Positions 11,237 through 56,173 of a stretch of 64,000 nucleotides of DNA are shown here, piece by piece (within the stretch, counting starts at the first letter, position 1; every line of letters begins with the position of its first letter). The stretch comes from Patescibacteria group bacterium. GTDB taxonomy: Bacteria > Patescibacteriota > Patescibacteriia > UBA10025 > JAHIVO01. The notes under the pieces were generated by a model that was not told the DNA's origin, did no database searches, and saw only the letters and a program-made list of their open reading frames with translations. Position numbers and translations under genes: made by a program. The stretch is from assembly GCA_028718605.1 (NCBI GenBank), contig JAQULM010000002.1, forward strand, positions 321,776 through 385,775, given 5' to 3'.

Positions 11237-11740
11237 GTGAGTAAACTCGACGTTCCATATTATAAACAATCAACGGAATACTCATGCGGGCCTGCGTCAC
11301 TCCGGATGGTGCTGGGCTACTATCACCATGCTGCCAGTGAACGTACGCTCGCACGCGCCGCGAAAACAACAAAGACGTACGGGACAAGCCATGCCGGCAT
11401 GGTCCGCGCTGCACGAGCACTGGGATTGCACTGCGTCACGCACGAGCGCGCAACTGTCGCCGAAGTGAGGAGATACATCACGCACGCAATCCCCGTGATT
11501 ATTAACTACCGCCATGCAGACGGCGAGGGGCACTACGCTGTCGTCGTCGGGCATACGCCATCGTCGCTGCGTATCCACGACCCATACGATAGACGATGCG
11601 ACTCCATTACGCTGCGAATGCTCTCCCAAAGATGGTGGGATGTATATCGCACAAAACGGTCAACCCGCTGGCTCATGGCCATCATGCCTGGAGCACGCAC
11701 GCCAAGGCGCCAGGCCAAACGACACACACATCATCCATAA
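11237..11740 (+). CDS. Peptidase C39-like (papain-fold cysteine peptidase) domain protein. GTG start as in the ORF track.
   Basis: PYYKQSTEYSCGPASLRMVL is the C39_2 signature (catalytic Cys), with a downstream His (GHYAVVVGH). Confidence 0.6.
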   Translation: MSKLDVPYYKQSTEYSCGPASLRMVLGYYHHAASERTLARAAKTTKTYGTSHAGMVRAARALGLHCVTHERATVAEVRRYITHAIPVIINYRHADGEGHYAVVVGHTPSSLRIHDPYDRRCDSITLRMLSQRWWDVYRTKRSTRWLMAIMPGARTPRRQAKRHTHHP

Positions 11741-13083: not shown

Positions 13084-14332
13084 GAGAAAGCCCAGGATAA
13101 CCGCCGCCTGGAACCAACAGCGGAGCGCTGCTTTCGTCCATGCGCCGTATGGAATTTTGATAGTCCTCCTCGTTGCCTTAGCCATTACCGGCGGGCTGTT
13201 GCTGTATGTAAACGGCGCAAAACAGGCGGCTACGCCCGTGACGACGCCCACACCGGATACGTTCTGCCAACAACATTCCGCTGACGCGTGCCCCACAGCC
13301 TGTGTGGTCTGCCCTCCCTGCCCTGAGTGCAGTTCACTGGGCTGCCATAATGCACAGTACTGTGAAGCTATCGGCTTCTCCCGAGAATGGTCTGACAGCA
13401 TCCAGGAACAAAGGCAGGTCGTAACCCTTACTGCCGTCGGAGACATCATGCTGTCCCGCACCGTTGAGCAGAAAATGATTACGTACAACGACTGGGCATA
13501 CCCATTTCGAGAAACGTATGAGCGCACCTCAGCAACCAATATTACTTTTGGGAATCTTGAAACGCCCCTCATCGAAGGCCCGATCGTGAAATCGGGAACT
13601 ATGGTATTTCGAGCTGATCCAAAAGCTGTCGAGGGCCTGGAGCTCGGTGGATTTGACGTGCTGTCCCTTGCGAATAACCATATCAAGAACCAAGGTGAAA
13701 AAGGGATAACGTCCACGATAGAAACGCTCGACGCGGCGGAAATACTGCACGTCGGCGCCGGAACAGACATCGGGGACGCTCGCAATCCTGCCCGCATCGA
13801 ACGGAACGGCATCACGTTCGGTTTTCTTGCTTGCACCGAGGGCTGGTTCAATCCCGCATCGTACGAAGCAACCGAGGACCGTGCTGGATCCCCGTTCTGT
13901 GACGAATCAACGATCGGCGATGAAGTGAAGCGCCTGAAATCTGACGTCGATGTGGTTATCGTATCCATGCATGCAGGAACAGAGTATACGCTCGCACCAA
14001 GCGACTGGCAATTGCGGTTCGCCCATGCCGCAATCGACAATGGCGCGCAGCTCGTCATCGGACACCACCCGCACGTCGTCGAGCCGATTGAACACTACAA
14101 GGACGGCTATATTTTGTACTCACTCGGTAATTTTGTATTTGACCAAATGTGGTCGGAAGAAACCCGCGAAGGAGCATTCGCAACAATTACGTTCAAGGGG
14201 GATGCAATCATTGACGTTGCGCTCACCCCGGTAATAATTTACGATTACAACCAGCCGCGCATTGCGACTGGTGATGACGCGGAGCGCATTCTGGGCCGGA
14301 TGGAAGATTTTTACATTCTGACGTTTTTGTGA
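13031..14332 (+). CDS. CapA/PgsA-family metallophosphoesterase (poly-gamma-glutamate capsule synthesis protein-like). It has an N-terminal TM anchor and a Cys-rich linker. The start is uncertain, because the ORF overlaps the upstream gene by 53 nt.
   Basis: Motifs GDIMLSR, LANNH, HAGTEY and GHHPHV are typical of the CapA/PGA_cap calcineurin-like fold. Confidence 0.7.
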   Translation: MTQPKHSVPYFRRKTFSKRKPRITAAWNQQRSAAFVHAPYGILIVLLVALAITGGLLLYVNGAKQAATPVTTPTPDTFCQQHSADACPTACVVCPPCPECSSLGCHNAQYCEAIGFSREWSDSIQEQRQVVTLTAVGDIMLSRTVEQKMITYNDWAYPFRETYERTSATNITFGNLETPLIEGPIVKSGTMVFRADPKAVEGLELGGFDVLSLANNHIKNQGEKGITSTIETLDAAEILHVGAGTDIGDARNPARIERNGITFGFLACTEGWFNPASYEATEDRAGSPFCDESTIGDEVKRLKSDVDVVIVSMHAGTEYTLAPSDWQLRFAHAAIDNGAQLVIGHHPHVVEPIEHYKDGYILYSLGNFVFDQMWSEETREGAFATITFKGDAIIDVALTPVIIYDYNQPRIATGDDAERILGRMEDFYILTFL

Positions 14333-14362
14333 TATAATAATTGCACATTTTCTTTCTCGTGT

Positions 14363-15241
14363 ATGACAAAAATTACCAAGGTTGTAATCCCAGCGGCGGG
14401 CTTCGGTACGCGCTTTTTGCCAGTCACAAAAGCGCAACCGAAGGAAATGCTGCCCATTGTAGACAAGCCAGTCATCCAGTACGTGGTTGAAGAGGCAGTC
14501 GCTTCGGGGATCAAGGATATTATCATCGTCACGAGCTGGCAGAAACGCTCGCTCGAGGACCATTTCGATTATTGCCCCGAGCTCGAAAAACAGCTCAAGG
14601 AAGGCGGAAAATACGATAAGCTCAAAGAGGTCCGCCAGATCGCGGAAATGGCTAATTTTATTTATGTACGGCAAAAAGGCCCGTACGGCAATGCGACGCC
14701 CGTCATTGCAGCACATCACGTGATCGGAGATGAACCATTTGCGGTCCTGTGGGGCGACGAATTCATCTACAGCAAGTCTCCCCGCCTCAAACAGCTCCTT
14801 GAAGTCTACGAAACATACGGCCACTCAGTCATCAGCGCGGTGAAAGTTCCGCGGGAAGACGTTTCACGGTACGGCATCGCGAAACTACGCCATAAAAAAA
14901 AGAATATCCACCAAATTCTCGATATTGTTGAAAAGCCGAGCGTCGCTGACGCGCCATCTGATTTGGCGACCCATGGTGGTTACGTTTTCACCCCGAGTAT
15001 TGTCCCCTATCTGAAAAAACTCAAGCCGGGCAAGGGCGGTGAGCTCTGGCTCGTCGATGCGATCCGGGAGCTTATCAAGAAAGAGCCAGTATACGCGTGC
15101 GAAATCAAGAATTGCACATACTACGACACGGGAAATAAACTTGAGTATCTCAAAGCAAATATTGATTTTGCGCTCCAGCGGGCTGATCTCCGCGACCCGC
15201 TGCTTTCGTACCTGAAGCACTGCGTCAAGACAATCAAATAA
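14363..15241 (+). CDS. galU: UTP--glucose-1-phosphate uridylyltransferase.
   Basis: VIPAAGFGTRFLPVTKAQPKEMLPIVDKP... is the canonical GalU N-terminus. Confidence 0.85.
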   Translation: MTKITKVVIPAAGFGTRFLPVTKAQPKEMLPIVDKPVIQYVVEEAVASGIKDIIIVTSWQKRSLEDHFDYCPELEKQLKEGGKYDKLKEVRQIAEMANFIYVRQKGPYGNATPVIAAHHVIGDEPFAVLWGDEFIYSKSPRLKQLLEVYETYGHSVISAVKVPREDVSRYGIAKLRHKKKNIHQILDIVEKPSVADAPSDLATHGGYVFTPSIVPYLKKLKPGKGGELWLVDAIRELIKKEPVYACEIKNCTYYDTGNKLEYLKANIDFALQRADLRDPLLSYLKHCVKTIK

Positions 15242-15244
15242 CAT

Positions 15245-16627
15245 ATGAAGATGCGGCTATCCCACGCTCCCTACGGGCTGTCAAAACTTCTAATCATCGC
15301 GCTGTTTGGCGTCATCGCGCTTATACTCGGCGGCGTTGTGTATACCCTTTTCACGCCGAAGAAAGCATCCCCGCCCGCTGGTGTCACGCTGACAGTCTGG
15401 GGCGTCTGGGACGAATCAACCGACGTCAGCAGCTTATTCAGCTCATACAGCAAAGCACACCCGTACGTAAAGCTCGTCTATACAAAAATTCGGAGCGAAG
15501 AGTACGAGGACAAGCTCCTGAAAGCGTGGGCGACCGACTCGGGCCCTGATATGTACGCGCTGCCCAACTCCTGGATTCACAAATACTCTGAAGATTTTAT
15601 ATCGCCCATGGCAAAAAAGGCTACGGTAGCATATTACGAAACGAAAAAAACTCTCTTTAAAACCGAAACACAATATATCTACCGCACCGAACCCGGCCTT
15701 GCCGCGGATGTGCTCAAGCGAACATACATATCCAACGTCTACGATGACGTCGTCATCAACAACCAGATATACGCGCTTCCGTTTGGAATCAATACGCTCG
15801 TCATGTACTACAACCGGGAACTCCTGAACCAGGCGTTGCTTGCCGAACCTCCGGCATCATGGGAAGAATTCAAGCAAGCAGTGATGAAACTTGCCGTCGT
15901 CGACGACGAACAAAACGTACTTCGTGCCGGCACTGCACTCGGCACGTATGACAATATCCCCCATGCGACTGATCTCGTCACGCTCCTTATGATGCAATTT
16001 GGTACGCAGATGACGACAGGCGGCAAGGTGAGCTTCCAACTTTCTGTCGGCGGAGATGATGTCGCCATCAAGGCGCTCGACTATTACACCGCATACTCTT
16101 CGCCAGAACGTGAAGCGTACACGTGGAATACCCAAATGCCCAACGCCGTTGACTATTTCTGCGATAACCAGCTTGGCTTCATGTTCGGCTACCGATATGA
16201 ACAAACAGCGATCACGAATGCGTGCAAGGGTGTCGATTTCGGCATTGCGGCAGTACCCCAGGTAGACCCGAATTACTCGGTAAATTATGCAAACTACTGG
16301 GCCTACACTGTCTCAAAGAAATCAAAAAATGCTGCCCTGGCGTGGAACTTTCTGCAGTACGTATCAAACTCAAAGCGCGTTGCCAAATATCTAGACGCAA
16401 CAAAGCAAGCGAGTGTTTTAAAATCAGTGCTGGACGAACAGCTGAAGAATCCTGAAACCGCATATCTCGCACAGCAAGCGCTCACGGCAAAGAGCTGGTA
16501 CCGCGGCCGGGATCCGCGCGGCGCCGACGATGCCTTCCAGGCGATGATAGAAGCGATTGTTGAAAATAACCAAACAATTGGCGCTGAACTCCGTAGTGCA
16601 GCTTCAAAAATCCAAAGTACCTATTAA
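15245..16627 (+). CDS. Extracellular solute-binding protein (ABC sugar-binding, family 1-like) with an N-terminal TM/signal anchor.
   Basis: N-terminal hydrophobic helix. The overall SBP_bac_1-like pattern is LTVWGVWDE ... YALPF. Confidence 0.55.
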   Translation: MKMRLSHAPYGLSKLLIIALFGVIALILGGVVYTLFTPKKASPPAGVTLTVWGVWDESTDVSSLFSSYSKAHPYVKLVYTKIRSEEYEDKLLKAWATDSGPDMYALPNSWIHKYSEDFISPMAKKATVAYYETKKTLFKTETQYIYRTEPGLAADVLKRTYISNVYDDVVINNQIYALPFGINTLVMYYNRELLNQALLAEPPASWEEFKQAVMKLAVVDDEQNVLRAGTALGTYDNIPHATDLVTLLMMQFGTQMTTGGKVSFQLSVGGDDVAIKALDYYTAYSSPEREAYTWNTQMPNAVDYFCDNQLGFMFGYRYEQTAITNACKGVDFGIAAVPQVDPNYSVNYANYWAYTVSKKSKNAALAWNFLQYVSNSKRVAKYLDATKQASVLKSVLDEQLKNPETAYLAQQALTAKSWYRGRDPRGADDAFQAMIEAIVENNQTIGAELRSAASKIQSTY

Positions 16628-16631: not shown

Positions 16632-18314
16632 ATGCGCATAACTCGAAACACCATACTCCAACCAATACTGCTCGCACTCTGCGTGGTCTGTATTGCTTCC
16701 GCCATCCCGTCAGCTGCAAACGCCGCTCAGGCAACCTACCCCGAAGGGTTCAAGATAATCCCTGATTGCGCGCTCGACAAGGGCAACTGCGACCTGGATG
16801 ATTTTGTCCAGCTCTTCGTGAACCTCGCCGGCGTCGCCCTCCGCATCCTGCCGTACCTCGCCATGATCATGATGATCTGGGCTGGTTTCAACCTCATTAT
16901 GGCAGGCGGCAATCCCCAAAAAATCCAGGAAGGCAAGAAGATGATATCATCAATCGTCGTGGGCATGATTATTGTCATCGTCCTTGCGTGGTGCTTCGCG
17001 CATTTCGTCGTTTTTATACTGACCGGCAGCTTCAATATCTTTCCCGGATACGGGAATCCGCTTGAGCGCGAATGGTGGGGCGGCGGCACAACAGGCCAGG
17101 TAGACCCCGAGAAAGGCTGCTGCGTTATCAAGGAAGGCGGGTGCGTGGAGGAAACGCGGGAACAATGCGAATGCCGGCAGAATCCTCTCGTATACATCTG
17201 CCCGGATGGCACCCCCGGTCTGGAACAAGAAACGAATTTCATGGGTGAGGGCGAATACTGCTACTCATTTGAAGCTGCGTGCACGAAATTTAAATACGGT
17301 TGCTGCATACCGAAAGTGCCCAATGCCGCTGATCCCGGATCCGACACGTGTTACGTGCCGGACGATGACGGATGCCTCAAATTTCCGGGCACGACGCACA
17401 ACAGCAACATCTGCGCGGCGCTGACTGACATCTGCGACCCGAGCCTGATCCAGGGCACTCAGGACATTTCACCGGATGCCACCGGATGCTGCGTGAAAGA
17501 TAGTTCATGCGCGGAAACAACCTTCACTGGCTGCACCGGCACATTTAACTACGGAGTCAGCTGCAATAACATCGAGGAATGCAAGCAAGGCTGCTGTGTC
17601 GCCCCGGACGGCTGCATATCCGGAAAAATCGATTGCGCCTACTTCTGGAATGCCTCAAAATGCACTGAACCGCCGAACATCGGCGGTGCGGACAATTGCC
17701 GAGTCGGGTGCTGTATTACCAACAATTCTACAGAATTCAACCAATGCGAAAATAACCAGACAGCCCTCAATTGCAGCCTGGAAGGTGACTCTCAGTTCTT
17801 CTCGGCTACTGATTGCTCAACCATTTCCGTATGCGCGAACGGCTGCTGTCTCCAGTCGTGCACGTCAGGAAGCATTGACGGTTCCTGCGGCGCGTATACT
17901 ACATACCGAAAAAGCACCACCTGCGCCGCCTCACCGGATTGCGTTTTTGGCTGCTGCCTCAAATCAGGCGCTACGCGGTGTGTTGGGAATGTGCTCCAGG
18001 GCAACTGCGTTGCGCCGGACACGTGGATCGGTGCTGGTGCCTGTGACCCTGCCGTGTGTGCAACTGGCTGCTGTGAACTAACTGCTGAAAACTACCGGTG
18101 CGTGGACGAGACTTCAACATATTGGTGCCTTGCACAGCCGGGACATATTTTCTATCTCGGTGACGCCTGCTCAGAGGTCAATAACTGTACCGCAGGTGGG
18201 TATTGTATTTACGGCGGTACGTGCTATCCTTGGGGGTCCCCCCATACGCAGGCTGAGTGCGTAACGGGCCATGGCGGGGTATTTTACCCAGCGCCCGCAA
18301 CGTGCCCCTCATAA
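16632..18314 (+). CDS. T4SS-pilin-like (TrbC/VirB2-like) membrane domain fused to an approx 400-aa cysteine-rich extracellular repeat domain (8 GCC-initiated repeats). The start is at the first ATG after the upstream stop.
   Basis: Residues approx 60-135 (LAGVALRILPYLAMIMMIWAGFNLIMAGGNPQKIQEGKKMISSIVVGMIIVIVLAW) are paralogous to the two downstream small pilin-like proteins. Downstream, GCC recurs 8 times with about 6 Cys per repeat. Confidence 0.6.
   Translation: MRITRNTILQPILLALCVVCIASAIPSAANAAQATYPEGFKIIPDCALDKGNCDLDDFVQLFVNLAGVALRILPYLAMIMMIWAGFNLIMAGGNPQKIQEGKKMISSIVVGMIIVIVLAWCFAHFVVFILTGSFNIFPGYGNPLEREWWGGGTTGQVDPEKGCCVIKEGGCVEETREQCECRQNPLVYICPDGTPGLEQETNFMGEGEYCYSFEAACTKFKYGCCIPKVPNAADPGSDTCYVPDDDGCLKFPGTTHNSNICAALTDICDPSLIQGTQDISPDATGCCVKDSSCAETTFTGCTGTFNYGVSCNNIEECKQGCCVAPDGCISGKIDCAYFWNASKCTEPPNIGGADNCRVGCCITNNSTEFNQCENNQTALNCSLEGDSQFFSATDCSTISVCANGCCLQSCTSGSIDGSCGAYTTYRKSTTCAASPDCVFGCCLKSGATRCVGNVLQGNCVAPDTWIGAGACDPAVCATGCCELTAENYRCVDETSTYWCLAQPGHIFYLGDACSEVNNCTAGGYCIYGGTCYPWGSPHTQAECVTGHGGVFYPAPATCPS
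17115..18311 (+). repeat. Coding repeat array. Eight cysteine-rich modules each begin with Gly-Cys-Cys (ggctgctg / ggttgctg / gggtgctg at 17115, 17299, approx 17487, 17590, 17709, 17842, 17949, 18066).
   Basis: Direct reading of the recurrent GCC motif in the translation and of the ggYtgctg motif in the DNA. Confidence 0.55.
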
Positions 18315-18347
18315 TTATCAAATTTTAAAACATTTCTTGGAACGAAT

Positions 18348-18746
18348 ATGTCAAAAACATTCTTGCTCGGCACTATACTCACGGCCACGGCGGTTATCGC
18401 GCTGACTGCTGTGCTTCCTACCCCATCGACACTTGCCGCCGAAACGGCTGACGCACCGGTGACGCTGCCAAATCCGCTCGGGAAGAAGACTGGCACCGAC
18501 GAGCCGATTAGCATGGTTGATGTCTTGCTTCGCGTCATGCAAATTGCGCTTATGGCTGTGGATGTATTCGCCCTCTTTATGTTCATCCTCGGCGGATTCG
18601 AGATGCTGATTTCGGCTGGTAACCCGAATATGATTAAAAAGGCAAAAGACACGCTCATCTGGGCTACGCTTGGGATACTCGTGATTACATTCAGCTATTC
18701 GATACTCAAATTCGTATTTGAAGAAGTACGCAAGGGTTTCGCATAA
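18348..18746 (+). CDS. T4SS-pilin-like (TrbC/VirB2-like) small membrane protein: signal peptide plus two TM helices.
   Basis: VFALFMFILGGFEMLISAGNPNMIKKAKDTLIWATLGILVI matches the paralog core GGFxxMxAGGNxxKxxxAKKxI. Confidence 0.6.
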   Translation: MSKTFLLGTILTATAVIALTAVLPTPSTLAAETADAPVTLPNPLGKKTGTDEPISMVDVLLRVMQIALMAVDVFALFMFILGGFEMLISAGNPNMIKKAKDTLIWATLGILVITFSYSILKFVFEEVRKGFA

Positions 18747-18752
18747 GTTTGA

Positions 18753-18781
18753 TTGACAAAAACATCAATACGGAGTATAAT
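18753..18781 (+). promoter_or_regulatory. Consensus sigma70 promoter P1: TTGACA, 17 nt, TATAAT.
   Basis: Exact -35 TTGACA (18753-18758), a 17-nt spacer, and exact -10 TATAAT (18776-18781). Confidence 0.6.
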
Positions 18782-18794
18782 AATAACGTTACCA

Positions 18795-18823
18795 TTGACA
18801 CGCATCGTAACCTTTTGTATAAT
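18795..18823 (+). promoter_or_regulatory. Consensus sigma70 promoter P2: TTGACA, 17 nt, TATAAT. It sits in tandem with P1, with a strong SD (aagggggtga) 8 nt before the 18935 ATG.
   Basis: Exact -35 (18795-18800), a 17-nt spacer, and exact -10 (18818-18823). Confidence 0.6.
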
Positions 18824-18934
18824 ACCAGGATTTCGTGAATTGCTAGGTTCTTGCGCTCCGATGTGTTTATTATTTCGCTAGTCCCTTCTCGCATTTCAAT
18901 AAGAGAAAAGGGGTAGAAAGGGGGTGAGTACAGA

Positions 18935-19291
18935 ATGAAAAAAATTACAGTCGGCTTACTCACTGCAGCAGCGGTTTTGCTGCCAGTCGTCGCTTCAGCA
19001 CAGGTGAACATCAACAAGGTAAACGGTTCGACCTTCAACCTTGGCACCGCGGACCTCGAGTCAGCGGTCGTGAACATTGTGCAGTGGGTGTTAGGTTTCT
19101 TGGGATTGGTCGCAGTTATCATGATCCTGATCGGCGGTTTCCAGTGGATGACAGCAGGTGGAAACGAAGAAAAAGTTGCATCAGCAAAGAAAATTATTTC
19201 TGCAGCAGTTATCGGTTTAATCGTTATATTGCTCGCATGGGCAATTGTCATCTTTGTCGTTTCGCAGACACAGGACTGGACTGGCGTCTAG
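18935..19291 (+). CDS. T4SS-pilin-like (TrbC/VirB2-like) small membrane protein, probably the highly expressed paralog.
   Basis: Signal peptide MKKITVGLLTAAAVLLPVVASA plus the core LGFLGLVAVIMILIGGFQWMTAGGNEEKVASAKKIISAAVIGLIVILLAW. It has tandem consensus promoters and a strong terminator. Confidence 0.65.
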   Translation: MKKITVGLLTAAAVLLPVVASAQVNINKVNGSTFNLGTADLESAVVNIVQWVLGFLGLVAVIMILIGGFQWMTAGGNEEKVASAKKIISAAVIGLIVILLAWAIVIFVVSQTQDWTGV

Positions 19292-19311
19292 TGAATGTTT
19301 GATTCTAACTG

Positions 19312-19350
19312 CCCCCCACACCATTTTTTATGGTGTGGGGGGTTTGTTTT
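19312..19350 (+). terminator. Strong rho-independent terminator. The 12-bp stem is ccccccacacca / tggtgtgggggg, with loop tttttta and trailing TTTGTTTT.
   Basis: Perfect 12-bp inverted repeat plus a T-tract directly after the pilin-like gene. Confidence 0.8.
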
Positions 19351-19378
19351 ATCGAGAAACCTACGATACAATACATGC

Positions 19379-21382
19379 ATGGAAATTGCGAAAAAAATCA
19401 CCCTCATGACGCGGCGATACAGCACCCTGCTGCTCTGGATATGTATCGCGATATTCATAAGCGCGCTCTTTATCGTTGTCGCGTGCAAGTACGCTGCGTT
19501 TGGCTACGACGCGATCGATCTCGGGATATACAGCCAGGTTTTTTTCAATTCCAGCCATGGTGCGCTGTTCGAATTCTCAGTACACCCGCATTCCTACCTC
19601 GGTGACCACGTCGAGCTTTTTATTTTATTGCTCCTGCCGTTCTACGCACTCCTCAAATCCCCGCTCACGCTCCTCGCACTGCAGATAATTGCCGTCGCCA
19701 TTGCTGCCGTGCCGCTCTACTCCATAGCCCGCAGGCTGCTCCCCGAGCATTGGTCGCTCGCGATCGTGCTCGCGTACTTATGCAACCCGTTTGTATTGAA
19801 CATGGCGTTTTTTGAATTTCACTTGCTCCCGTTCGCCATCCCCTTGCTCATGGCAGCGTTTTACTTCTACCGCGAGAAGCGGCTGGCATGGTTTCTTGTT
19901 TTTTCAGTCCTCGCGCTCTCGGTACGGGAAGACGTCCCGCTCGTTATCGGCATGTTCGGCGTGCTCGCTGCCATTGACCGCCGGCGACTCCGGTGGATAC
20001 TGCCGCCAATAATTATTAGCGGCGTGTGGTTCATAGCTGCATTTAAGTTAACCGGCTACTTCAGCGGTTATGACACCTATAAATTTCTCGCTTTTTATTC
20101 TTGGCTCGGATCAACCCCAGGGGAAATCGTACACAATGCGCTATTCAAACCATGGCTTGTTCTCCGGCAGATTATGAGCGCGAACAATCTGCTGCTGGTA
20201 ATCGGTTTGCTCCTCCCACTCGGAGCATTGCCGCTGCTGAAAACACGATACCTTATTCCGGCCGCGCTCATCACGGCCCAGCTTTTCCTCGCGACCGTGA
20301 GCAGCACGATTGTACTTCAAACACACTATCCATCGCTCATTATTCCGTTCCTCTTTATCGCGTGTGTCTTTTCGCTCGCAACAGTGCTCTCAGCGACGCC
20401 ACGCGCAACACGCCTCGCGCAGTTTGCGCGCCGCAACCGGCTGATCGTGCTCGCAGTTTTCGGTATGGCGGTCGTGTATAGTTTTCTGACATTTAGCCCT
20501 GCCGTAAGCAGCGCGAAATTCGTAGCAACAGGACAGCACCGCAATGAAAGCACTACCGTGAAGCGAAACGCCATTGCGCCGATTCAGGAGGGTGACGCGG
20601 TGGTCGCGAGCTACGAATTTTTGCCAGCATTAGCCCAAAGAAAACATTTATACCCTCTGCATTATTTATTTCTTGGAGTTCAGCAGTATTCTGATAAGCC
20701 GTATATCGTGACTGAACCGATCGACACGGCCGTGGTCAATTTCCAAGACTTCGTAACGTACTACATCCAAACAGGCAACATTAGCTCATACCGCGACCAC
20801 TACCGGTCCGGCGCGGGAAGAATTCTCTCGCTGATTAACGAAAATCGGCTCGGCCTGGCCTCTCTGACCGATTCAATCGCGCGGTACGACCGAAACGCGC
20901 AGCCAGTCGCCAAACTCGTTGACCTGCCGAATGCAGTCAGCGCAAGTGCGACTGCCGTTGAAACCACGGGCAACCAGCTTCTTCGCATTACCGCATGGGA
21001 TCGAATCGCTGCGCTCCCGGACCATGAAGCCCTTGCGGTCCTTCCCCTTGCGCTGTACTGGGAAAAAAGCGGCAATCTCGCCGAGGACTATGCCATGGAA
21101 GTCGTGTTCCGTACCGCAAACGGTAAAGCAGCCAGCACAGAATACTACCCCATTGGGTACGGCATATTCCCCCCCTCTGTATGGATCGTCGATACTACCG
21201 TCCAAACCAACCACTGGTTCCTCATACCACGGGAGTGCAAAAAAAGCTCGTGCAATGCCGAGCTTACGGTCGTCTCTCTCCGCGGCTATTACGGCCTGGA
21301 TGGAATCCGCTCAACCAAACTCGAAATCACCCAGCGGCAGTCAATCGGGCCTACGGTAACTATTCCCGCACCCGATAGATAG
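19379..21382 (+). CDS. Polytopic membrane protein, GT-C / DUF2079-like putative glycosyltransferase, with an approx 300-aa C-terminal extracytoplasmic domain. The start is moved to an internal ATG, because the upstream part of the ORF is the terminator.
   Basis: N-terminal motif GYDAIDLGIYSQVFFNSSHG is typical of DUF2079. There are more than 10 TM helices. Confidence 0.5.
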   Translation: MEIAKKITLMTRRYSTLLLWICIAIFISALFIVVACKYAAFGYDAIDLGIYSQVFFNSSHGALFEFSVHPHSYLGDHVELFILLLLPFYALLKSPLTLLALQIIAVAIAAVPLYSIARRLLPEHWSLAIVLAYLCNPFVLNMAFFEFHLLPFAIPLLMAAFYFYREKRLAWFLVFSVLALSVREDVPLVIGMFGVLAAIDRRRLRWILPPIIISGVWFIAAFKLTGYFSGYDTYKFLAFYSWLGSTPGEIVHNALFKPWLVLRQIMSANNLLLVIGLLLPLGALPLLKTRYLIPAALITAQLFLATVSSTIVLQTHYPSLIIPFLFIACVFSLATVLSATPRATRLAQFARRNRLIVLAVFGMAVVYSFLTFSPAVSSAKFVATGQHRNESTTVKRNAIAPIQEGDAVVASYEFLPALAQRKHLYPLHYLFLGVQQYSDKPYIVTEPIDTAVVNFQDFVTYYIQTGNISSYRDHYRSGAGRILSLINENRLGLASLTDSIARYDRNAQPVAKLVDLPNAVSASATAVETTGNQLLRITAWDRIAALPDHEALAVLPLALYWEKSGNLAEDYAMEVVFRTANGKAASTEYYPIGYGIFPPSVWIVDTTVQTNHWFLIPRECKKSSCNAELTVVSLRGYYGLDGIRSTKLEITQRQSIGPTVTIPAPDR

Positions 21383-36408: not shown

Positions 36409-37905
36409 ATGGCAAAAACACTCCGCATCGCAAGCATATCATCAGAGGTTTCCCCCTACTCCAAAACTGGCGGCTTAGCTGACGTGACGAAGGCGCTCTC
36501 AAAAGCGCTTTCGAACCACGGCCACAAGGTTTCGGTAGTAACGCCGTTCTACAAATTCATCAAAGATCAGGACCTCAATCTAAAACGGGTGAAGGAAACC
36601 GCGACGGTGGTCGTCGGACGGCAAAAATTTCCCGTTTCGTATCTCAGGTTGGATGTCAACCCAAACCTGGCTATTTTCTTTGTGGTCATTGATGCCCTCT
36701 TTACGAAACGCTCAAATGTATATGGATACCCAGATGACAACCTGCGGTTTCTCGTTTTTAATATCGCCGCATTGAGATTTCTCGACAACTTGACGCCACG
36801 CCGCGACATCATCCACTGCCATGATTGGCAGGCGGGCTTGGTCCCGTACTTCCTCACAAAATACCCACAGCGGTTCCAGTCGCTCCGGCGATCTGCAACC
36901 GTATTCACCATCCATAATCTCACATTCCAATCCGGCAAGAATTGGTGGAGCATCCCAAAACGATCACGCGATGACGGAAAATTCGACCCACTGAAAAATC
37001 CGGCAAAAATCCGATTCCTCAATTTTACGAAACGTGGAATACTATACGCCGATACGATCAATACGGTCAGCGAACGGTACGCGGAAGAAATTTTGACACC
37101 GGAGTACGGCCAAGGCTTGGATAAGTGCCTCCGAGCTCGCAAAACAAACCTGTACGGCATCATTAACGGCATTGATTATACGATACATAATCCGGCTTTT
37201 GATGGGAATATCCGATTCAAATACGACTGGAATAGCCTCGGCCGCAAGAAAAAAAATAAGCTTGAGCTGCAAAAAATCGTCGGTATCGAACAGAACCCGG
37301 AGATTCCCCTGATCGGCGTCGTCAATCGGCTCACGGAGCAGAAAGGCTTCCGTCTTATCATGGAAACCTTCGAGGTGCTCATGCGCATGCCATTGCAAAT
37401 TGTTATTCTCGGGAGCGGTTTTCTTGAGTACATCACGTTTTTCAAAAAAATGGCGCGCACGTACCCGCGGCGGTTCGCATTCTTCACGCCTTTTTCAGAA
37501 CAAATGGAATCAAAAATTTATGCCGGATCGGACATGTTCCTCATGCCGTCGCGGTTTGAGCCATGCGGAATTTCCCAGCTGAAAAGCTTGCGGTACGGAT
37601 CCATACCGATCGTGCACGAAACCGGCGGCCTCTCTGACACGATCACGAATTACAGCCCCCGCACCCGAAAAGGAAACGGCTTTGTTTTCAAAAAATACGC
37701 TCCTGAGGACTTCCTCATAACGATTGCCCGGGCTCTTGAAAATTACAAATACTCGCAGGCGTGGGAATACCTCGTCTGGTCGTCCATGCAGCAAACCTAC
37801 TCGTGGGAATTGCCCGCACGAAAATATCTGCTCCTCTACTCTCGCGCGATAAAAACCAGGCCAAAAAACCGAACTACATTAATTATCCCCCACCAACACG
37901 AATGA
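36409..37905 (+). CDS. glgA: Glycogen synthase (GT5).
   Basis: LRIASISSEVSPYSKTGGLADV is the K-T-G-G-L motif, with C-terminal E377-like motifs. Confidence 0.8.
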   Translation: MAKTLRIASISSEVSPYSKTGGLADVTKALSKALSNHGHKVSVVTPFYKFIKDQDLNLKRVKETATVVVGRQKFPVSYLRLDVNPNLAIFFVVIDALFTKRSNVYGYPDDNLRFLVFNIAALRFLDNLTPRRDIIHCHDWQAGLVPYFLTKYPQRFQSLRRSATVFTIHNLTFQSGKNWWSIPKRSRDDGKFDPLKNPAKIRFLNFTKRGILYADTINTVSERYAEEILTPEYGQGLDKCLRARKTNLYGIINGIDYTIHNPAFDGNIRFKYDWNSLGRKKKNKLELQKIVGIEQNPEIPLIGVVNRLTEQKGFRLIMETFEVLMRMPLQIVILGSGFLEYITFFKKMARTYPRRFAFFTPFSEQMESKIYAGSDMFLMPSRFEPCGISQLKSLRYGSIPIVHETGGLSDTITNYSPRTRKGNGFVFKKYAPEDFLITIARALENYKYSQAWEYLVWSSMQQTYSWELPARKYLLLYSRAIKTRPKNRTTLIIPHQHE

Positions 37906-39131
37906 TTTGGGCAAATTTTTTCCATATTTACCAGCCGCCGAATTGGCCACCCGCAATCATAAAAAAGGTTGCGGACGAAAGCTATCGTCCGTTTCTTGAT
38001 ATCCTGAAACGCCACCCGTCCCTCAAGGTTACGCTGAATATTTCTGGCTCACTTACCGAGCAGCTCGCCCAGCACAAGCTCCACGACATTATACTGGACA
38101 TCAAACGTCTCGCGACACTCAAGCAGATAGAATTCACCGGCACGGCGATCTACCACCCAATATTGCCGCTGATCCCCACTGAGGAAATCGTTCGGCAAAT
38201 TGAGTTGAATACGGCGGTGAACCAGAAATATTTCGGCCATATATACAAACCGACGGGCTTCTATCCGCCGGAAATGGCGTACGGACGCAAAGCCGCGCTC
38301 ACCATTCAGCCTCTCGGCTTCAAGTGGATCATCGCTGACGAAATAAGCAGCGCCGGAAAACTCGGCCGCACCAGATTCGACCGCCGATACCATATCATCA
38401 ACACGTCCATCGACATTATTTTCAGGAATCGCGCGATTAGCGATTACTTCGCTTTCCATGCAAACCCGAGCAACCCGGGAGGATTCTGGGATGCTATCCG
38501 CGACGATAACCGCAGTGCGCAGGCGCTTGTTACCGGAATGGACGGTGAAAACCTTGGCCACCACCGAAAGGGATGGGATGCTTTTTGGGAACAGCTGGTC
38601 ACTGCCCAACGCGTACAGACAGTCACGATAAGCGAGCTTCTTGCGCGGTACCAAAAAAGAGAAACCATCAGTCCGCGCCGCGCAAGCTGGTCTTCCCAGG
38701 AACGCGAAATCGAACAAGGAAGCCCCTATGTACTCTGGGATGACCCCCATAATCCAATCCACGAACTGCAGTGGCGGCTTCTCAGGCATGTTACTTCGCT
38801 CGTCGAGGAGCAGAAACAGAACCCGCTCTATATGAAAGCCCGGGAATTGCTTGATCGCCAGCTCTCCTCGGACCAATTTTGGTGGGCATCGGCAAAACCG
38901 TGGTGGAGTCTCGACATTATCAAGCGTGAAACAAAGGAGCTCGTCCGTATTGCCCAATATATTAATGAGAAAGACACGCTGACGTACGAATTGTCCCATA
39001 TGATACTCACAACCGCCAAGTCGTGGCAAGATGAAAATAAATTCGAAATAACCGCCAACGAATACCTCAATGCGAATGGGGACACCGGTGTCCGGTATAT
39101 CGGCGGCCGGATGATATCTGCGAATAAATAA
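37902..39131 (+). CDS. GH57-family alpha-glucan-active enzyme (branching enzyme / amylase-like). It overlaps the glgA stop in an ATGA arrangement.
   Basis: MIWANFFHIYQPP... start, and catalytic-region motifs GDGENLGHHRKGWDAF. Confidence 0.7.
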   Translation: MIWANFFHIYQPPNWPPAIIKKVADESYRPFLDILKRHPSLKVTLNISGSLTEQLAQHKLHDIILDIKRLATLKQIEFTGTAIYHPILPLIPTEEIVRQIELNTAVNQKYFGHIYKPTGFYPPEMAYGRKAALTIQPLGFKWIIADEISSAGKLGRTRFDRRYHIINTSIDIIFRNRAISDYFAFHANPSNPGGFWDAIRDDNRSAQALVTGMDGENLGHHRKGWDAFWEQLVTAQRVQTVTISELLARYQKRETISPRRASWSSQEREIEQGSPYVLWDDPHNPIHELQWRLLRHVTSLVEEQKQNPLYMKARELLDRQLSSDQFWWASAKPWWSLDIIKRETKELVRIAQYINEKDTLTYELSHMILTTAKSWQDENKFEITANEYLNANGDTGVRYIGGRMISANK

Positions 39132-39145
39132 TTAATACTACGATC

Positions 39146-40525
39146 ATGTACTGGGCGAATTTTTTACACATTTACCAGCCCCCAACCCAGAAAGAATACT
39201 GGGTGAAGAAAATCGCGAACGAAAGCTACCGCAAGCTGATCAAGGGCTTCACGGAAAATCCCCATGCGAAAGCAACGTTGAATATCAACGCAGGCTTAAC
39301 CGAACTCTTCGCAAAGTATGCTTGCCGCGACGTCATCGCCGGCATACGGATGCTGGCAGAACGCGGCCAGATCGAGCTCACCGCGAGCGCAAAATACCAC
39401 CCCTTCCTCCCCATGATGCCCAAGGATGAAATCGTCCGTCAGATCGAGTTGAATACTGCAACAAACCGCCGCTATTTTGGCTCCGCATACAAACCGACGG
39501 GGTTCTTCCCGCCGGAAATGGCGTACAACCGTAACGTTGCCGATGTCATTGCAGGCCAGGGGTACCGCTGGCTCATCCTCGATGAGCTTGCTTTCTCGGG
39601 AAAAATTAAAGACATCGACTGGACAAAAACCTACACAGTGCGCGGGCATGACAATCTCCACGTTTTCTTCCGCGAGCGTGAAGCGAGCTTCCGTATACTG
39701 TCCGCCGAAATCGGGATGAGCATCTTCTCGGGCAGCATGCTCATCAAGCTCCTCGGAGAGCGCGTTCATAACAAGGAATACCTTATCACCGCCATGGACG
39801 GAGAAACATTCGGCCACCACCGGCCGGGCCTTGAATACCTCCTCTTTGACCTCTATAAGACGAAAGAATTGCAGCCCGTTACGATTTCCGAACTCACGGC
39901 GTTCTTTCCCGCATCGGCAGCCATCGAGCCGCGGCCGTCGTCATGGGCACTGATGATGAAAGACATCGAACGCAACACGCCATTTTCACGGTGGAACGAC
40001 AAACACAACACCATCCATGCGATGCAATGGCAGCTCACGAATCTCGCCATACAGAGCATCAAGCGACTGAAAAAAACGTTCAAGCGGTACCCGCGCGTCC
40101 GCCATGACCTGGATCGCGCGCTCCACTCCGACCAATACTGGTGGGCCTCGGCGATGCCGTGGTGGAGCATCGAAATGATCGAAGCGGGAGCGAAGGACCT
40201 CCGCGACGTCATACTCGAATCCCCGGTCAGCAAAACAACAAAAGCTAAAGCGCAACAGTTATACCAAAACATCCTCTTTACAGCTTTTGACTGGCAACGG
40301 TCAGGCAAGGTTGATGTGCTGGCAAAATCGGCTGACGAGGACGTTACACAGCGTATTACCACTGATATTCCGTACATACCGGAGGCAGAATTCAACAGCA
40401 TCATCGCGAACCTTGAGAAACAGATGCATGAGGCGGCAAGTTCCCAAGAGTACGAACGCGCCGCGCAAATCAGAAATCGCGTCAACGAACTCAAGGAAAA
40501 GAAAGATCAAATTACGAAGCGTTAA
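39146..40525 (+). CDS. GH57-family enzyme, tandem paralog, with a C-terminal UVR (UvrB/UvrC-type) motif.
   Basis: MYWANFLHIYQPP, then TAMDGETFGHHRPG. The C-terminal EYERAAQIRNRVNELKEKK matches the UVR domain. Confidence 0.7.
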   Translation: MYWANFLHIYQPPTQKEYWVKKIANESYRKLIKGFTENPHAKATLNINAGLTELFAKYACRDVIAGIRMLAERGQIELTASAKYHPFLPMMPKDEIVRQIELNTATNRRYFGSAYKPTGFFPPEMAYNRNVADVIAGQGYRWLILDELAFSGKIKDIDWTKTYTVRGHDNLHVFFREREASFRILSAEIGMSIFSGSMLIKLLGERVHNKEYLITAMDGETFGHHRPGLEYLLFDLYKTKELQPVTISELTAFFPASAAIEPRPSSWALMMKDIERNTPFSRWNDKHNTIHAMQWQLTNLAIQSIKRLKKTFKRYPRVRHDLDRALHSDQYWWASAMPWWSIEMIEAGAKDLRDVILESPVSKTTKAKAQQLYQNILFTAFDWQRSGKVDVLAKSADEDVTQRITTDIPYIPEAEFNSIIANLEKQMHEAASSQEYERAAQIRNRVNELKEKKDQITKR

Positions 40526-40528
40526 CGT

Positions 40529-41524
40529 ATGGCATCACAACGATATGCGCCATCTCGGCTCCGGGAACGGCAGCGCGGCCTGGCAATTATCCGGCAGGTT
40601 ATCGCTTCACAGAATTTTCGCACTGATAAAAAAATCAAGTTCGGCGACCGCTATTACATTGCAGAAGGTTCGCTGCGAAGCACCCCGGCGCTCTTTAAAT
40701 CCTGTATCTTCCCCCCATCCTTCGACCACCTCACGCACCAAAAGTTCTCGCGGGAAATTATCTTTCTGACATTCGTCAAGCGTTCACACTTCAACGCCCT
40801 CAAGCGCGCAGTCCCGTACGTGTATGCCTCATCAGTCAGCCACCGCGCATGGTATATCCGTGAGTACTTTGGCGGAATCCGGCAAAATATTCACGATGGG
40901 AATATCCGCTTTCGGCCGTCCTTTTTCACGCCGGCATCGCTCCGCTGGGTGCTCAATACGTTCTTCGAGCTACAATCGATCCGCGAGCAGGACTTGCCGG
41001 ACCGTTTTAAAAAACTGCTTTACGCGCCCCAAACGTTCGCATATCTGTGGCGCTTTGTCAGGCCGTTTCGCCAGCACGTTGATGCGTTTACCCGCATACC
41101 TAACGCAAGCCAGCGCGCCTTCGCGGTATTACGCGCCCACAACACCCTCGCAGCTCGCTTTCCGCGAGTTTTAGCGCACCAGGAACCGTATGCGCCCCAC
41201 ATCCTAAAAACGGGCGCTTCGTATCGGCTCATTGACTGGGAAAATATCGGCTGGGCGTCCATCATGAAAGACTTTGTAACGATATGGATGCGTGCATCGA
41301 GTAATCCAGCATGGCAACGCGCCTTGTACCATCGCTTAAAACGGCGGTATGGCTCGTACGCGGGGTTCAATAATCTCTGGTCATCAACCGTGTTGCTTCA
41401 ATCAGTATTCAATACCATTGGCTATCATTTTTACCCAGACAAAAAAGATTTCGCCGAGCTTGGGAAATTTTCTGCACAGAAAATCCGGGAGATCCTCGCC
41501 AACAATTTCCGGATGTATAATTAA
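40529..41524 (+). CDS. Hypothetical protein, with possible protein-kinase-like / APH-type phosphotransferase fold remnants.
   Basis: Only weak motif hints (LIDWENIGW). No clear HxDxxxxN catalytic loop. Confidence 0.3.
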   Translation: MASQRYAPSRLRERQRGLAIIRQVIASQNFRTDKKIKFGDRYYIAEGSLRSTPALFKSCIFPPSFDHLTHQKFSREIIFLTFVKRSHFNALKRAVPYVYASSVSHRAWYIREYFGGIRQNIHDGNIRFRPSFFTPASLRWVLNTFFELQSIREQDLPDRFKKLLYAPQTFAYLWRFVRPFRQHVDAFTRIPNASQRAFAVLRAHNTLAARFPRVLAHQEPYAPHILKTGASYRLIDWENIGWASIMKDFVTIWMRASSNPAWQRALYHRLKRRYGSYAGFNNLWSSTVLLQSVFNTIGYHFYPDKKDFAELGKFSAQKIREILANNFRMYN

Positions 41525-41533
41525 CGCCTCCCT

Positions 41534-42415
41534 ATGAGACAGTTTATCGACCTCCACGTGCACTCACACTATTCTGAGGGCGATTACTCCGTCAATGAGC
41601 TGCTCCAGCGCGCGCAATCAGAAAACATTTCAGCGCTGGCACTCGCTGACCACAATACAATCGCAGGCATTCAGGAACTATTGACCGAGGCACCACGCGC
41701 CGGAATCAAGGCAATTGTCGGCATTGAGCTCTATGTACATCATAACAGCCGGCAGCTGCATATCCTCGGGTATAATTTCAGCACAACAAACGCCGCTCTA
41801 GCATCCTCCCTGGCAGCGCTGCGGAAAGACAATGCTCGCAATGTCACACGCTCCATACACAGCCTTGAGGAACAAGGGTATACTATCAGCGAGGAGGCGA
41901 TTCTCGCCCTTCCATCCCAATCCATCGGAGTTATCCATTTGCTCCGCGAATTAGAAAGTTTCGAGGCAAACCGGGTAAAAATGCAGGCAGCGCTCCCTGC
42001 AGAAAAACAAACGTTTTTCGAAAAAATCAGTTACTTGTTCGGATTCCATGCTCCCGCGCATTTCCCCGTTTCAGCCCTTCCCGCAGGCGATGCAATCAAG
42101 CTCATTCATGGCGCGGGGGGCAGTGCGGTACTCGCCCACCCCGGACAACAATTAACGCACGCGGACGACTCACTGATCCGGAACCTGGCGCGCTTAGGCC
42201 TTGACGGCCTCGAAGTGCTCTCCCCGTACCATACCTGGCACCAAATTGAATACTACCAGCACCTCGCTCAAGAGCTCAAGCTACTGATGACTGGCGGCAG
42301 CGACTTCCACGGGGACTTTCCTGCTAACAAGCAAGGTTTCCTCAAAAGCCAGCTCGATTACTTCAAGATTCCAGTGTCTTTCCTGAATGGACTGACCACG
42401 CCCGGTACTCAATAA
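41534..42415 (+). CDS. PHP-domain metal-dependent phosphoesterase.
   Basis: IDLHVHSHYSEGD ... LADHNTIAG, with a later HGDFPANKQGF. Confidence 0.75.
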   Translation: MRQFIDLHVHSHYSEGDYSVNELLQRAQSENISALALADHNTIAGIQELLTEAPRAGIKAIVGIELYVHHNSRQLHILGYNFSTTNAALASSLAALRKDNARNVTRSIHSLEEQGYTISEEAILALPSQSIGVIHLLRELESFEANRVKMQAALPAEKQTFFEKISYLFGFHAPAHFPVSALPAGDAIKLIHGAGGSAVLAHPGQQLTHADDSLIRNLARLGLDGLEVLSPYHTWHQIEYYQHLAQELKLLMTGGSDFHGDFPANKQGFLKSQLDYFKIPVSFLNGLTTPGTQ

Positions 42416-42428
42416 TTAACCTCTTACC

Positions 42429-51912: not shown

Positions 51913-52182
51913 AAAAGTATAGATAAATAATTTAAAGAATAATAATTATAGTAATAGGAGCTGTGGGAAAGTGGAAAAGAATTATTGGTGGGTTTTTGGG
52001 AGCGAAGGTTAGCGCGCGAAGAAAGAAAAAGGATTTTATTGGGTGTGAACGACAACCGCACAAAAGGGGTATAGCGTGCCGACAGAGCGGGGATAATTAT
52101 TCAGGAGGAAGTGGGCGCGGGGGAAATGGTTTGATAAAAGGGGATAATCATGTGAGTTGTACGCTTGCCATCCACCACTTAT
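51913..52182. other. Candidate replication origin segment (dnaA-dnaN intergenic). It has an 85% AT stretch at 51913-51958 (DUE-like) and two GGGGATAAT near-DnaA-box motifs (52088, 52140).
   Basis: Synteny plus direct reading of the AT-rich block and repeated motifs. Boxes are only approximate matches to TTATCCACA. Confidence 0.35.
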
Positions 52183-53547: not shown

Positions 53548-53765
53548 AAGGAAAAAGACGTAAAAGATAGAACTCGTGGGACTGTATAAGTCGGTCAGTC
53601 GTGGTATTCATACTACCACAGCAAGCCGATAGAAAGAATGGTGGAATGCGAGCGTCTTTGTGAATAAACTGTTGATACTCTGAGGACAACCATAAATCGT
53701 TGACCGGAAGGATGAATTGTTGGTATACTGTGTGACATGCAATAAAAAATAATTTGTATTCGATT

Positions 53766-53903
53766 ATGCCGAAAAGAACGCATCAACCAAAAAAACGGAA
53801 ACGGAGCAGAACATACGGTTATATGAAGCGCACCCAGTCAAAGAAAGGGCGCAAGGTACTTGCGCGCCGGCGCCGGAAAGGGCGGTATTCACTGTCGCGG
53901 TAA
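53766..53903 (+). CDS. rpmH: 50S ribosomal protein L34. At 45 aa it is below the ORF-track cutoff.
   Basis: Translation is [45 protein letters not shown], against the L34 consensus M-KRT-QP-...[13 protein letters not shown]. Confidence 0.85.
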
Positions 53904-53916
53904 CGATTTTCAGCAT

Positions 53917-54261: not shown

Positions 54262-54265
54262 AAAC

Positions 54266-54511: not shown

Positions 54512-54514
54512 ATT

Positions 54515-55572: not shown

Positions 55573-55619
55573 GGGACTTTTCGGCGGAGGTCATCGCCCA
55601 GCGTTTCCGCGCATTCGCA

Positions 55620-56063: not shown

Positions 56064-56173
56064 ATGTGTATTGTAGTATGTTTCCCCGTCCCGACCAAGC
56101 TTGACACCTGATGGGGTCTACAGTATACTGATTTATTCTATAAAAAGCATACAGGAGGCGCACCCATTCATGT

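Follow-up and report, generated by a model that had tools for sequence, protein, structure and literature searches.

A conserved trio of VirB2-like pilin genes, one with a cysteine-rich extension, in Patescibacteria related to Candidatus Kerfeldbacteria

Much of the uncultivated bacterial diversity belongs to Patescibacteria, whose cultivated representatives live attached to other cells. The locus described here raises the question of what a set of conjugation-type pilin genes that lies apart from any recognizable type IV secretion system (T4SS) gene might contribute to the surface of such a cell. It consists of three genes, denoted A, B and C below, in a 64-kb stretch of contig JAQULM010000002.1 (hereafter, the window) from a patescibacterium related to Candidatus Kerfeldbacteria (class ABY1). 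The window is chromosomal, with an unremarkable GC content of about 50-55%. As claimed in a preliminary description made from the letters alone, the three open reading frames (ORFs) are consecutive and lie on the same strand:

16632..18314, + strand: gene A, extended VirB2-like pilin of 560 amino acids (aa), same start in NCBI
18348..18746, + strand: gene B, small divergent VirB2-like pilin, 132 aa, with zero cysteine residues
18935..19291, + strand: gene C, small conserved VirB2-like pilin, 118 aa, candidate major subunit

The products of A and C are identical to NCBI proteins of the metagenome-assembled genome (MAG) GCA_028711455.1 that are already named 'pilin'. For gene A, the upstream TTG start at 16557 was rejected in favor of the ATG at 16632, which matches the N-termini of the orthologs and the NCBI call, and a 181-aa opposite-strand ORF (18706-19251) was taken as spurious because it is antisense to the conserved gene C. 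No Rfam match was detected between 14 and 22 kb of the window.

Comparison of the three products with Pfam places all of them in the T4SS_pilin family PF18895, for which the gathering score is 26.6 bits: the gene A product matches with 28.8 bits over residues 64-125, the gene B product with 28.3 bits over residues 59-122, and the gene C product with 50.8 bits over residues 46-107. The same assignment appears in the precomputed annotation of the identical NCBI proteins, so that the proposed membership in the VirB2-like T4SS_pilin family is borne out for each gene. From the 869 window ORFs of at least 40 aa, a profile constructed from 40 orthologs of C retrieves only A (E 1e-16) and B (E 4e-11); thus, the similarity between the three proteins is far above chance, and the profile of the pilin core of A yields the reciprocal outcome among the window ORFs. 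The pairwise identity to the core of A is 23% for B and 33% for C, and all three share the motif GF..(M/L).(A/S)GGN..K(I/V)..(A/G)KK. Both B and C are within the size range of about 100-140 aa that is typical of PF18895 members, although not part of the Pfam definition, whereas A, as a fusion, is outside it. The best NCBIfam match of all three proteins is NF045849, a family of pilin-like proteins from Mycoplasma integrative and conjugative elements (ICEs), with 31 bits for C and 18 bits for the other two, compared to a cut-off of 40.

The hydropathy profiles of the trio's products consist of an N-terminal signal helix followed by two long hydrophobic segments. The signal helices end in AxA-type sites, ANA/A in A and ASA/Q in C (the slash marks the predicted cleavage point), which gives C a signal peptide of approximately residues 1-22 (VVASA/Q). 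The AlphaFold2 model of C contains helices at residues 38-73 and 78-116 joined by the four-residue loop AGGN, with a predicted local distance difference test (pLDDT) value of 76.9, and the model of A contains the equivalent hairpin helices at residues 55-90 and 95-131, in agreement with the two-helix topology that was originally suggested. After cleavage of the signal peptide, the hairpins should reside in the membrane, with both termini facing outward and the Lys-rich loop facing inward, as predicted by the positive-inside rule together with the known topology of VirB2/TraA pilins. A Foldseek search of PDB started with the C model identifies generic helical hairpins only, which is uninformative given that the hairpin fold is so simple, and a sequence-profile search of PDB with the C family produced 0 matches. 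The prepilin motif G-[FMILV]-T-[LIVM]-[ILVM]-E is found in none of A, B, C or the other window ORFs, which supports the earlier statement that these are not type IV (PilA) pilins. Taken together, these features are best compatible with the trio's products being VirB2-like (PF18895) pilins that are predicted to be exported via the Sec pathway.

What sets gene A apart is the part of its product that follows the hairpin. The predicted signal peptide (residues 1-31, positions 16632-16724) and a conserved Cys46-Cys53 pair precede the helical hairpin (residues 55-131, positions 16794-17024), which is followed by a juxtamembrane WWGG linker near residue 148 that is invariant in the 16 aligned orthologs of the GCC type (see below). 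The remainder, a tail of about 410 aa (approximately residues 150-560), contains 54 of the 59 cysteines of the protein, so that the fusion of one pilin to a cysteine-rich extension of about 400 aa was correctly recognized at the outset. Residues 162-560 (17115-18311) comprise eight modules of 35-62 aa, each with six cysteines and each starting with GCC (hence GCC modules), and a C-terminal cap with four further cysteines. Gly and Thr are abundant in the tail, which is also acidic (46 D/E versus 18 K/R), and AlphaFold2 models it as small modules of a beta-hairpin and a short helix, with pLDDT mostly 75-88. Across 16 orthologs, the cysteine columns of the tail are 93% conserved (47 of the 54 at 90% or more), compared to an average of 30% for the remaining 357 tail columns and 73% for the hairpin. 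Short A proteins (256-344 aa) have 0-2 GCC modules, and the long ones (516-666 aa) have 8-10. Only about 20 relatives of the A protein are present among 5.8 billion clustered proteins, and no sequence or fold relative of the tail was detected outside the orthologs; the lone non-pilin match (P0147), a eukaryotic kinase/TPR protein aligned on low-complexity repeats, was discarded. Given its position after the second helix, the tail is predicted to be outside the cell, where disulfides can form, which fits its cysteine content, and it can be considered a candidate new disulfide-rich fold.

Relatives of these genes reveal that A is one of several ways to extend a pilin. In deeper Kerfeldbacteria, the genes at the position of A, right after the solute-binding protein gene that also precedes A (see below), encode a PG_binding_1 domain where A has GCC repeats:

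L024, 9839-10831: A-position gene, T4SS_pilin plus PG_binding_1
L025, 2520-3635: A-position gene, T4SS_pilin plus PG_binding_1
L026, 11-1249: A-position gene, T4SS_pilin plus PG_binding_1

The PG_binding_1 domain is recognized in all three with 34-38 bits (cut-off 23) and the T4SS_pilin domain above the cut-off in L024 (31.6 bits) and L025 (28.5 bits) and below it in L026 (22.0 bits); the L024 protein carries one GCC module in addition to PG_binding_1. In these deep orthologs, PG_binding_1 is located about 50-60 residues past the second helix. The combination of a pilin with PG_binding_1 recurs in at least 12 protein clusters, one of which is named 'peptidoglycan-binding protein' by NCBI. A different extension is found in giant pilin-headed proteins encoded in other, metagenomic loci:

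L074, 7764-15875: giant pilin-headed protein, 2,703 aa
L088, 9947-19076: giant pilin-headed protein, at least 3,043 aa
L092, 9938-19441: giant pilin-headed protein, 3,167 aa
L073, 5391-7213: giant pilin-headed protein, cut at 607 aa

These giants start with a pilin domain that, judged by eye, is visibly C-like. In the three that were scanned with Pfam (L074, L088 and L073), the T4SS_pilin domain scores 44-50 bits (44 in both L074 and L088) and is followed by immunoglobulin (Ig)-like domains, namely, Big_5 in all three, Big_7 and Big_13 in L074 and L088, and TIG and HYR in L088; judging from the domain content, this is a classical adhesin architecture. By eye, the giant genes follow housekeeping genes, such as those for signal peptidase I, HisRS, a HIT-family protein, S21 and GatB/YqeY. 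Thus, both A-type and C-type pilin domains have been repeatedly fused to outer domains of the binding type.

Gene C displays the opposite pattern, with strong conservation and no extension. It has 850 homologs, the best 120 of which are about 117 aa long and 62-82% identical to it. Over aligned columns of the window and two relatives, the orthologs of C are 74-80% identical, those of B 62-67%, residues 1-150 of A (signal peptide, N-terminal segment and hairpin) 48-57%, and the tail of A 38-40%; for the neighboring genes, the values are 69-73% (nucleotidyl-transferase), 49-53% (solute-binding protein) and 42-44% (DUF2079 protein). Hence C evolves as slowly as a core enzyme, which is the opposite of the 'variable paralogs' picture of other pilin arrays. 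The expression signals around this gene were compared in 17 loci, the window and 16 orthologous ones. In the window, these signals are:

18753-18781 and 18795-18823, + strand: tandem perfect sigma-70-type promoter matches, TTGACA-17-TATAAT, in the B-C gap
18920..18927, + strand: strong Shine-Dalgarno-like GGGGGTGA, 7 nt ahead of the ATG of C, read from the sequence
19311..19343, + strand: intrinsic-terminator-like hairpin, 14 pairs (9 G-C) followed by TTTGTTTT, 20 nt past the stop of C

The two promoter matches, noted already in the preliminary description as consensus promoters of the last gene, are the sole sites in the 64-kb window that match at 12 of 12 positions, with 0.01 expected by chance. 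A promoter scoring 11-12 of 12 is present in the B-C gap of 16 of the 17 loci (12 of 12 in twelve of them, often in tandem), and an equivalent hairpin with TTTGTT(T/G)T is located downstream of C in all 17. The ribosome-binding sites of A and B are poor, with nothing comparable to that of C. Judging from this comparison of signals, C apparently is expressed on its own and at a high level.

Related genomes carry another C-like pilin gene (about 72% identity to C), which stands alone between dnaB and the gene for a P-type cation ATPase (L004 10001-10354 and L006 10001-10351; also L036, L049, L055, L075 and others), with no T4SS gene nearby.

The genomic context of the trio is conserved as well. 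It includes the following features upstream and downstream of the pilin genes:

14310..14338, + strand: promoter-like site, TTTACA-17-TATAAT, 11 of 12, with TG, ahead of the nucleotidyl-transferase gene
14363..15241, + strand: nucleotidyl-transferase (GalU-like, sugar-1-phosphate), Pfam NTP_transferase, E 1.3e-35
15245..16627, + strand: solute-binding protein, carbohydrate-type, membrane-anchored, Pfam SBP_bac_1, E 1.1e-17
19379..21382, + strand: DUF2079 polytopic membrane protein, Pfam E 4e-53, NCBI start, beyond the terminator

Among species-representative genomes, 19 related loci were identified in MAGs of Patescibacteria and Candidatus Kerfeldbacteria, including the complete chromosome CP181398.1, and the order of a long A, a small B and C is the same in all 19. 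Gene B is always located between A and C in the related genomes and metagenome loci, and the deeper Kerfeldbacteria have the arrangement A-B-C-C-C. The complete series of nucleotidyl-transferase, SBP_bac_1 protein, A, B, C, DUF2079 protein and an opposite-strand 544-aa membrane protein is present in every locus with flanks and is the commonest context among the 80 metagenome loci retrieved with the C family. The nucleotidyl-transferase gene is found at an equal offset in every related locus that has the upstream flank, and the solute-binding protein gene is always directly upstream of A in the related loci, even at 32% identity. Five of the loci (L009, L011, L019, L021 and L027) come from 'TPA_asm' (binchicken) MAGs titled 'uncultured Gammaproteobacteria bacterium' despite the Patescibacteria-specific pilin locus; these titles look like mislabelled taxonomy.

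The gaps between the nucleotidyl-transferase, solute-binding protein, A and B genes are 3, 4 and 33 nt, respectively; the stop of the solute-binding protein gene is 4 nt ahead of the start of A (1-4 nt in the two loci for which coordinates were read). Judging from this spacing, the four genes likely form an operon transcribed from the promoter at 14310-14338. The solute-binding protein itself yields weak matches to the NCBIfam GanS and MalE families and has an N-terminal membrane anchor and no adjoining permease of the ATP-binding cassette type. The DUF2079 protein, which yields a weak match to the NCBIfam 'cell surface glycopolymer formation protein' family, is probably involved in the formation of such glycopolymers. 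A GATACAAT-like (-10-type) element is located before its start (window 19344-19378) and is kept in most of the 16 orthologous loci, with variants in a few of them; the position of this element after the terminator of C suggests a separate conserved promoter for the DUF2079 gene. In the reading developed below, the trio is taken to be a vertically inherited chromosomal pilin module.

Pilin genes of this family have been surveyed in Patescibacteria on a large scale. Quinonero-Coronel et al. 2025 (PMC12102498) searched 3,035 genomes with PF18895 and PF04956 and detected VirB2-like pilins in 1,948 VirB4-bearing assemblies, in just 1,135 of which these genes are near virB4; 441 arrays, each made up of 2-11 pilin genes and with 25% identity on average, were found in 383 assemblies. 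Of nine Kerfeldbacteria assemblies listed in Table S1 of that survey, seven have VirB4, and no adhesin was identified in it for these systems. The trio, with its three adjacent genes, has the gene layout of an array as understood in the survey (two to eleven tandem or one-gene-separated pilins of low identity). A 2025 review considers the Patescibacteria systems unique among monoderms in their potential to build conjugative pili (PMC12857230), and elsewhere their function has been termed completely unknown (PMC11665869). The preliminary description of these pilins as expanded in the candidate phyla radiation, with unknown function, is therefore correct as a framing, with the reservation that the genes already carry the annotation 'pilin' and that arrays of this kind have been published (PMC12102498, PMC10633639, PMC12857230).

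These observations can be accommodated in a reading, to which our confidence extends about halfway, whereby C makes up the bulk of a VirB2-type assembly, A and B join it as minor pilins displaying binding domains, and the T4SS is encoded elsewhere in the genome. Under this scheme, C would be the abundant major subunit that polymerizes into a fibre, and B and A, made from the upstream operon with the nucleotidyl-transferase and the solute-binding protein, would be minor subunits present at a lower level. Protein A would join or nucleate the same assembly via its pilin hairpin, exposing the disulfide-scaffolded ectodomain of about 410 aa at its outward C-terminus, where it would serve to bind either a host or partner surface or the cell wall. 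Assembly presumably would proceed via a VirB4-type T4SS. The preliminary description suggested an abundant surface fibre or adhesin system, and this idea, which we infer from the sequences, is strengthened by the conservation of the expression signals of C and by the fusion of pilin domains to binding-type outer domains.

Several observations weigh against this reading. To our knowledge, a pilus of this type has never been seen in any patescibacterium. PF04956 (TrbC/VirB2), the other family to which the trio had been likened, matches none of A, B and C at E values up to 1; it touches only the L022 ortholog of A (16.4 bits versus the cut-off of 27.9) and, in precomputed annotation, two homologs of C. 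No VirB4, VirD4, VirB6, VirB3, relaxase or, apart from the pilins, other T4SS family was identified by Pfam and NCBIfam scans of essentially all window ORFs of at least 80 aa (seven of the window ORFs matched no family), as the preliminary description had stated for VirB4, VirD4 and relaxase. Likewise, VirB4, VirB6, VirB3 and VirD4 were found neither within about 10 kb of the trio in the 19 related genomes, where a relaxase is missing too, nor next to the C-like pilins in the 80 metagenome loci (810 kb). In total, about 1.2 Mb of related sequence contains no VirB4-like ATPase adjoining the trio, the extended or the solo pilin genes. The high expression of C is deduced from sequence signals only. 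A packed pilus shaft could not accommodate a domain of 410 aa on each subunit, so that A has to be assumed to be rare or terminal. Finally, the PG_binding_1 orthologs could just as well be taken as a sign that A is anchored in the wall of its own cell and does not bind a host.

None of the large ORFs with a Walker A motif near pilin genes proved to encode VirB4; their products are DnaB, an AcrB-family transporter, a PKD-like protein and an LTD/PKD protein. The sole secretion-type ATPase in the window is the T2SSE (PilB/GspE-type) protein encoded at 57341-59200, as had been pointed out for filament ATPases. This gene is present though no window ORF has the type IV prepilin motif.

The lack of an assembly ATPase linked to these pilin genes is the first point in favor of an alternative that involves no filament, which we regard as somewhat improbable. 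According to this alternative, the VirB2-like hairpin, a fold that is not pilin-specific, would be only a two-helix membrane anchor or oligomer, so that A, its PG_binding_1 variants and the Ig-domain giants would be membrane-tethered surface proteins, and B and C abundant small membrane partners of the envelope-glycan genes, for example, in the organization or anchoring of a surface layer. The location of the trio among envelope and glycan genes (nucleotidyl-transferase, sugar-type solute-binding protein, DUF2079 protein, glycosyltransferases) is compatible with such a role, as is the short distance between PG_binding_1 and the second helix, which suits binding to the cell's own wall. However, a simple anchor would require neither the 74-80% identity of C across the lineage nor the invariant GGN..K..KK loop. 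By eye, the fused hairpins of the giants remain similar to C in sequence, which points to common subunit contacts and favors co-assembly over a generic anchor. Furthermore, the family is homologous to the pilus-forming VirB2/TrbC proteins, with a precomputed PF04956 match for some close homologs of C, and the six-pilin array of the saccharibacterium Southlakia epibionticum ML1, the one species tested in this respect, is part of a T4SS cluster and has been shown to be essential (Wang et al. 2023, PMC10633639).

Another possibility, unlikely in our assessment, is a version of the pilus model that retains the fibre and assigns to A the role of a basal, wall-spanning anchor. The ectodomain, ancestrally peptidoglycan-binding and here turned into a rigid stalk rich in disulfides, would tie the fibre to the cell's own wall in the manner of a sortase basal pilin, and host binding would be left to other proteins, such as the giant pilin-Ig fusions. 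The presence of PG_binding_1 in the positional orthologs, together with a GCC module in the case of L024, is what one would expect of such an origin, and the invariant juxtamembrane WWGG and the existence of separate giant adhesin-like fusions in the lineage are in line with it. The tail, however, is strongly acidic, its non-cysteine positions are conserved at 30% on average, and the number of modules ranges from 0-2 to 8-10; the low conservation and variable module number are better suited to an exposed element with a variable partner than to one that binds the cell's own invariant wall.

A broader extrapolation, which we consider distinctly doubtful, is that in the Kerfeldbacteria lineage the VirB2-like hairpin has turned into a general 'pilin handle' for surface display. 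A fibre or lattice of C would then accept the A variants and the Ig giants (about 2,700-3,200 aa) as plug-in components, forming a new class of modular adhesive appendage in monoderms that is maybe assembled without a linked T4SS, perhaps with the participation of the adjacent solute-binding and DUF2079 proteins, and the GCC module would be a new disulfide-rich fold. By contrast, the possibility that the trio is what remains of an integrated conjugative element or of some other mobile DNA, which is suggested by the origin of the pilin family in conjugation systems and by the sub-threshold NF045849 match of C, is hardly credible and is effectively refuted by the chromosomal neighborhood of housekeeping and envelope genes, the synteny of which is identical in 19 of 19 species genomes. 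Further points against it are the lack of relaxase, integrase, coupling protein or VirB4 in the window scans, the unremarkable GC content and the lack of a match in a tblastn search of 72,556 plasmids with C.

Beyond the trio and its neighbors, the window scans identify envelope and glycan enzymes, a glycogen cluster, TsaD, TsaE, YidC, YidD, aminoacyl-tRNA synthetases and a class A penicillin-binding protein (transglycosylase plus transpeptidase). An apparent replication-origin region (50809-57316), with dnaN, dnaA, YidD, YidC and TsaE, includes:

50809-51912, - strand: dnaN
52183-53547, - strand: dnaA

The minimum of the cumulative GC skew is near 50-52 kb of the window. Proximity of virB4 to dnaA has been reported for many classes of Patescibacteria (PMC12102498); there is no virB4 at this dnaA. 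The glycogen/starch-type cluster (36409-44871) encodes two Glyco_transf_5 starch synthases, a GH57 enzyme with a UVR motif, a kinase-like APH protein, a PHP-domain protein and a GalT-like transferase, which is notable for a reduced genome. A large secreted-type protein with FG-GAP repeats, a PliI-like (lysozyme-inhibitor) region and glucodextranase domain B is encoded at 66-2474, in an ORF that probably starts ahead of the window. A stand-alone Peptidase_C39-like cysteine protease of 167 aa, with no fused transporter domain of the ATP-binding cassette type, is encoded at 11237-11740, and three related loci (L002, L013 and L017) have a homolog of this protein at a distance of 5.9-7.9 kb upstream of A.

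That Patescibacteria possess arrays of annotated VirB2-like pilin genes, often unlinked to virB4, is already known. What is new is the fixed A-B-C module in its conserved neighborhood, the conserved high-expression signals of C, and the modular 'extended pilin' architecture, including a cysteine-rich repeat domain without a detectable relative. For systems in which the 2025 survey found no adhesin, the locus provides a concrete, conserved and testable candidate of the adhesin type, and the fusion in A is a new lead on how these cells may attach. It suggests a division of labor between one conserved, strongly expressed pilin and 'extended' pilins with exchangeable outward binding domains. If correct, this scheme would account for the specificity or the anchoring of a T4SS-type fibre in monoderms, and C could serve as a marker, and the hypervariable tail of A as a means, for tracking host association of Kerfeldbacteria in groundwater.

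The closest known counterparts of the trio are the VirB2 arrays of Patescibacteria, including those of TM7x, which likewise consist of tandem, divergent small pilins of PF18895 (23-33% identity in the trio compared to the published mean of 25%) in a monoderm host and are chromosomal, lacking a relaxase and often located apart from virB4. Those arrays, however, are variable sets of paralogs, whereas the trio is a fixed, deeply conserved module with three roles, one member of which (C) is very conserved rather than diversified. The trio also differs in its envelope-glycan neighborhood, with no T4SS gene in reach, in its lineage (ABY1/Kerfeldbacteria as opposed to the Saccharimonadia of the Southlakia/TM7x-type arrays), and in the large ectodomain of A, which is not described in PMC10633639, PMC12102498 or PMC12857230.

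The conjugative pilins VirB2, TrbC and TraA share with the trio the cleaved signal peptide, the two hydrophobic helices, the short basic loop and the termini on the outside, all of which are predictions for the trio. They are distant sequence relatives, given that PF18895 is a VirB2-like family and that a few C homologs match PF04956. Compared to them, the trio has short signal peptides, no PF04956 match, no linked VirB4, VirB5 or VirB6, and no sign of cyclization, acetylation or co-assembly with lipid. We know of no natural VirB2-family pilin described with a C-terminal domain of several hundred residues. The Mbov_0395 family (NF045849) of Mycoplasma ICEs resembles the trio as a small two-helix pilin-like protein of a T4SS in a wall-less or monoderm host, although the trio scores below the cut-off of that family and has no ICE context.

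Two further systems offer analogies of function. In the Trw system of Bartonella, also cited in PMC12102498 and PMC12857230, VirB5/TrwJ proteins are tip adhesins, and the multi-copy TrwL and TrwJ genes are amplified or diversified for host range; the resemblance to A is functional only and would lie in a minor component that displays a variable binding surface on a VirB2 fibre. The sortase pili of Gram-positive bacteria are composed of a tip adhesin, a major pilin and a basal pilin that anchors the fibre in the wall. Their fold and chemistry are unrelated to those of the trio, which has helical hairpins in place of Ig-like domains joined by isopeptide bonds and lacks both LPXTG and sortase; nevertheless, in the way they work they provide a parallel to the proposed organization of the trio, namely, one abundant shaft subunit combined with two minor subunits, one of them for binding or wall anchoring, in a monoderm cell.

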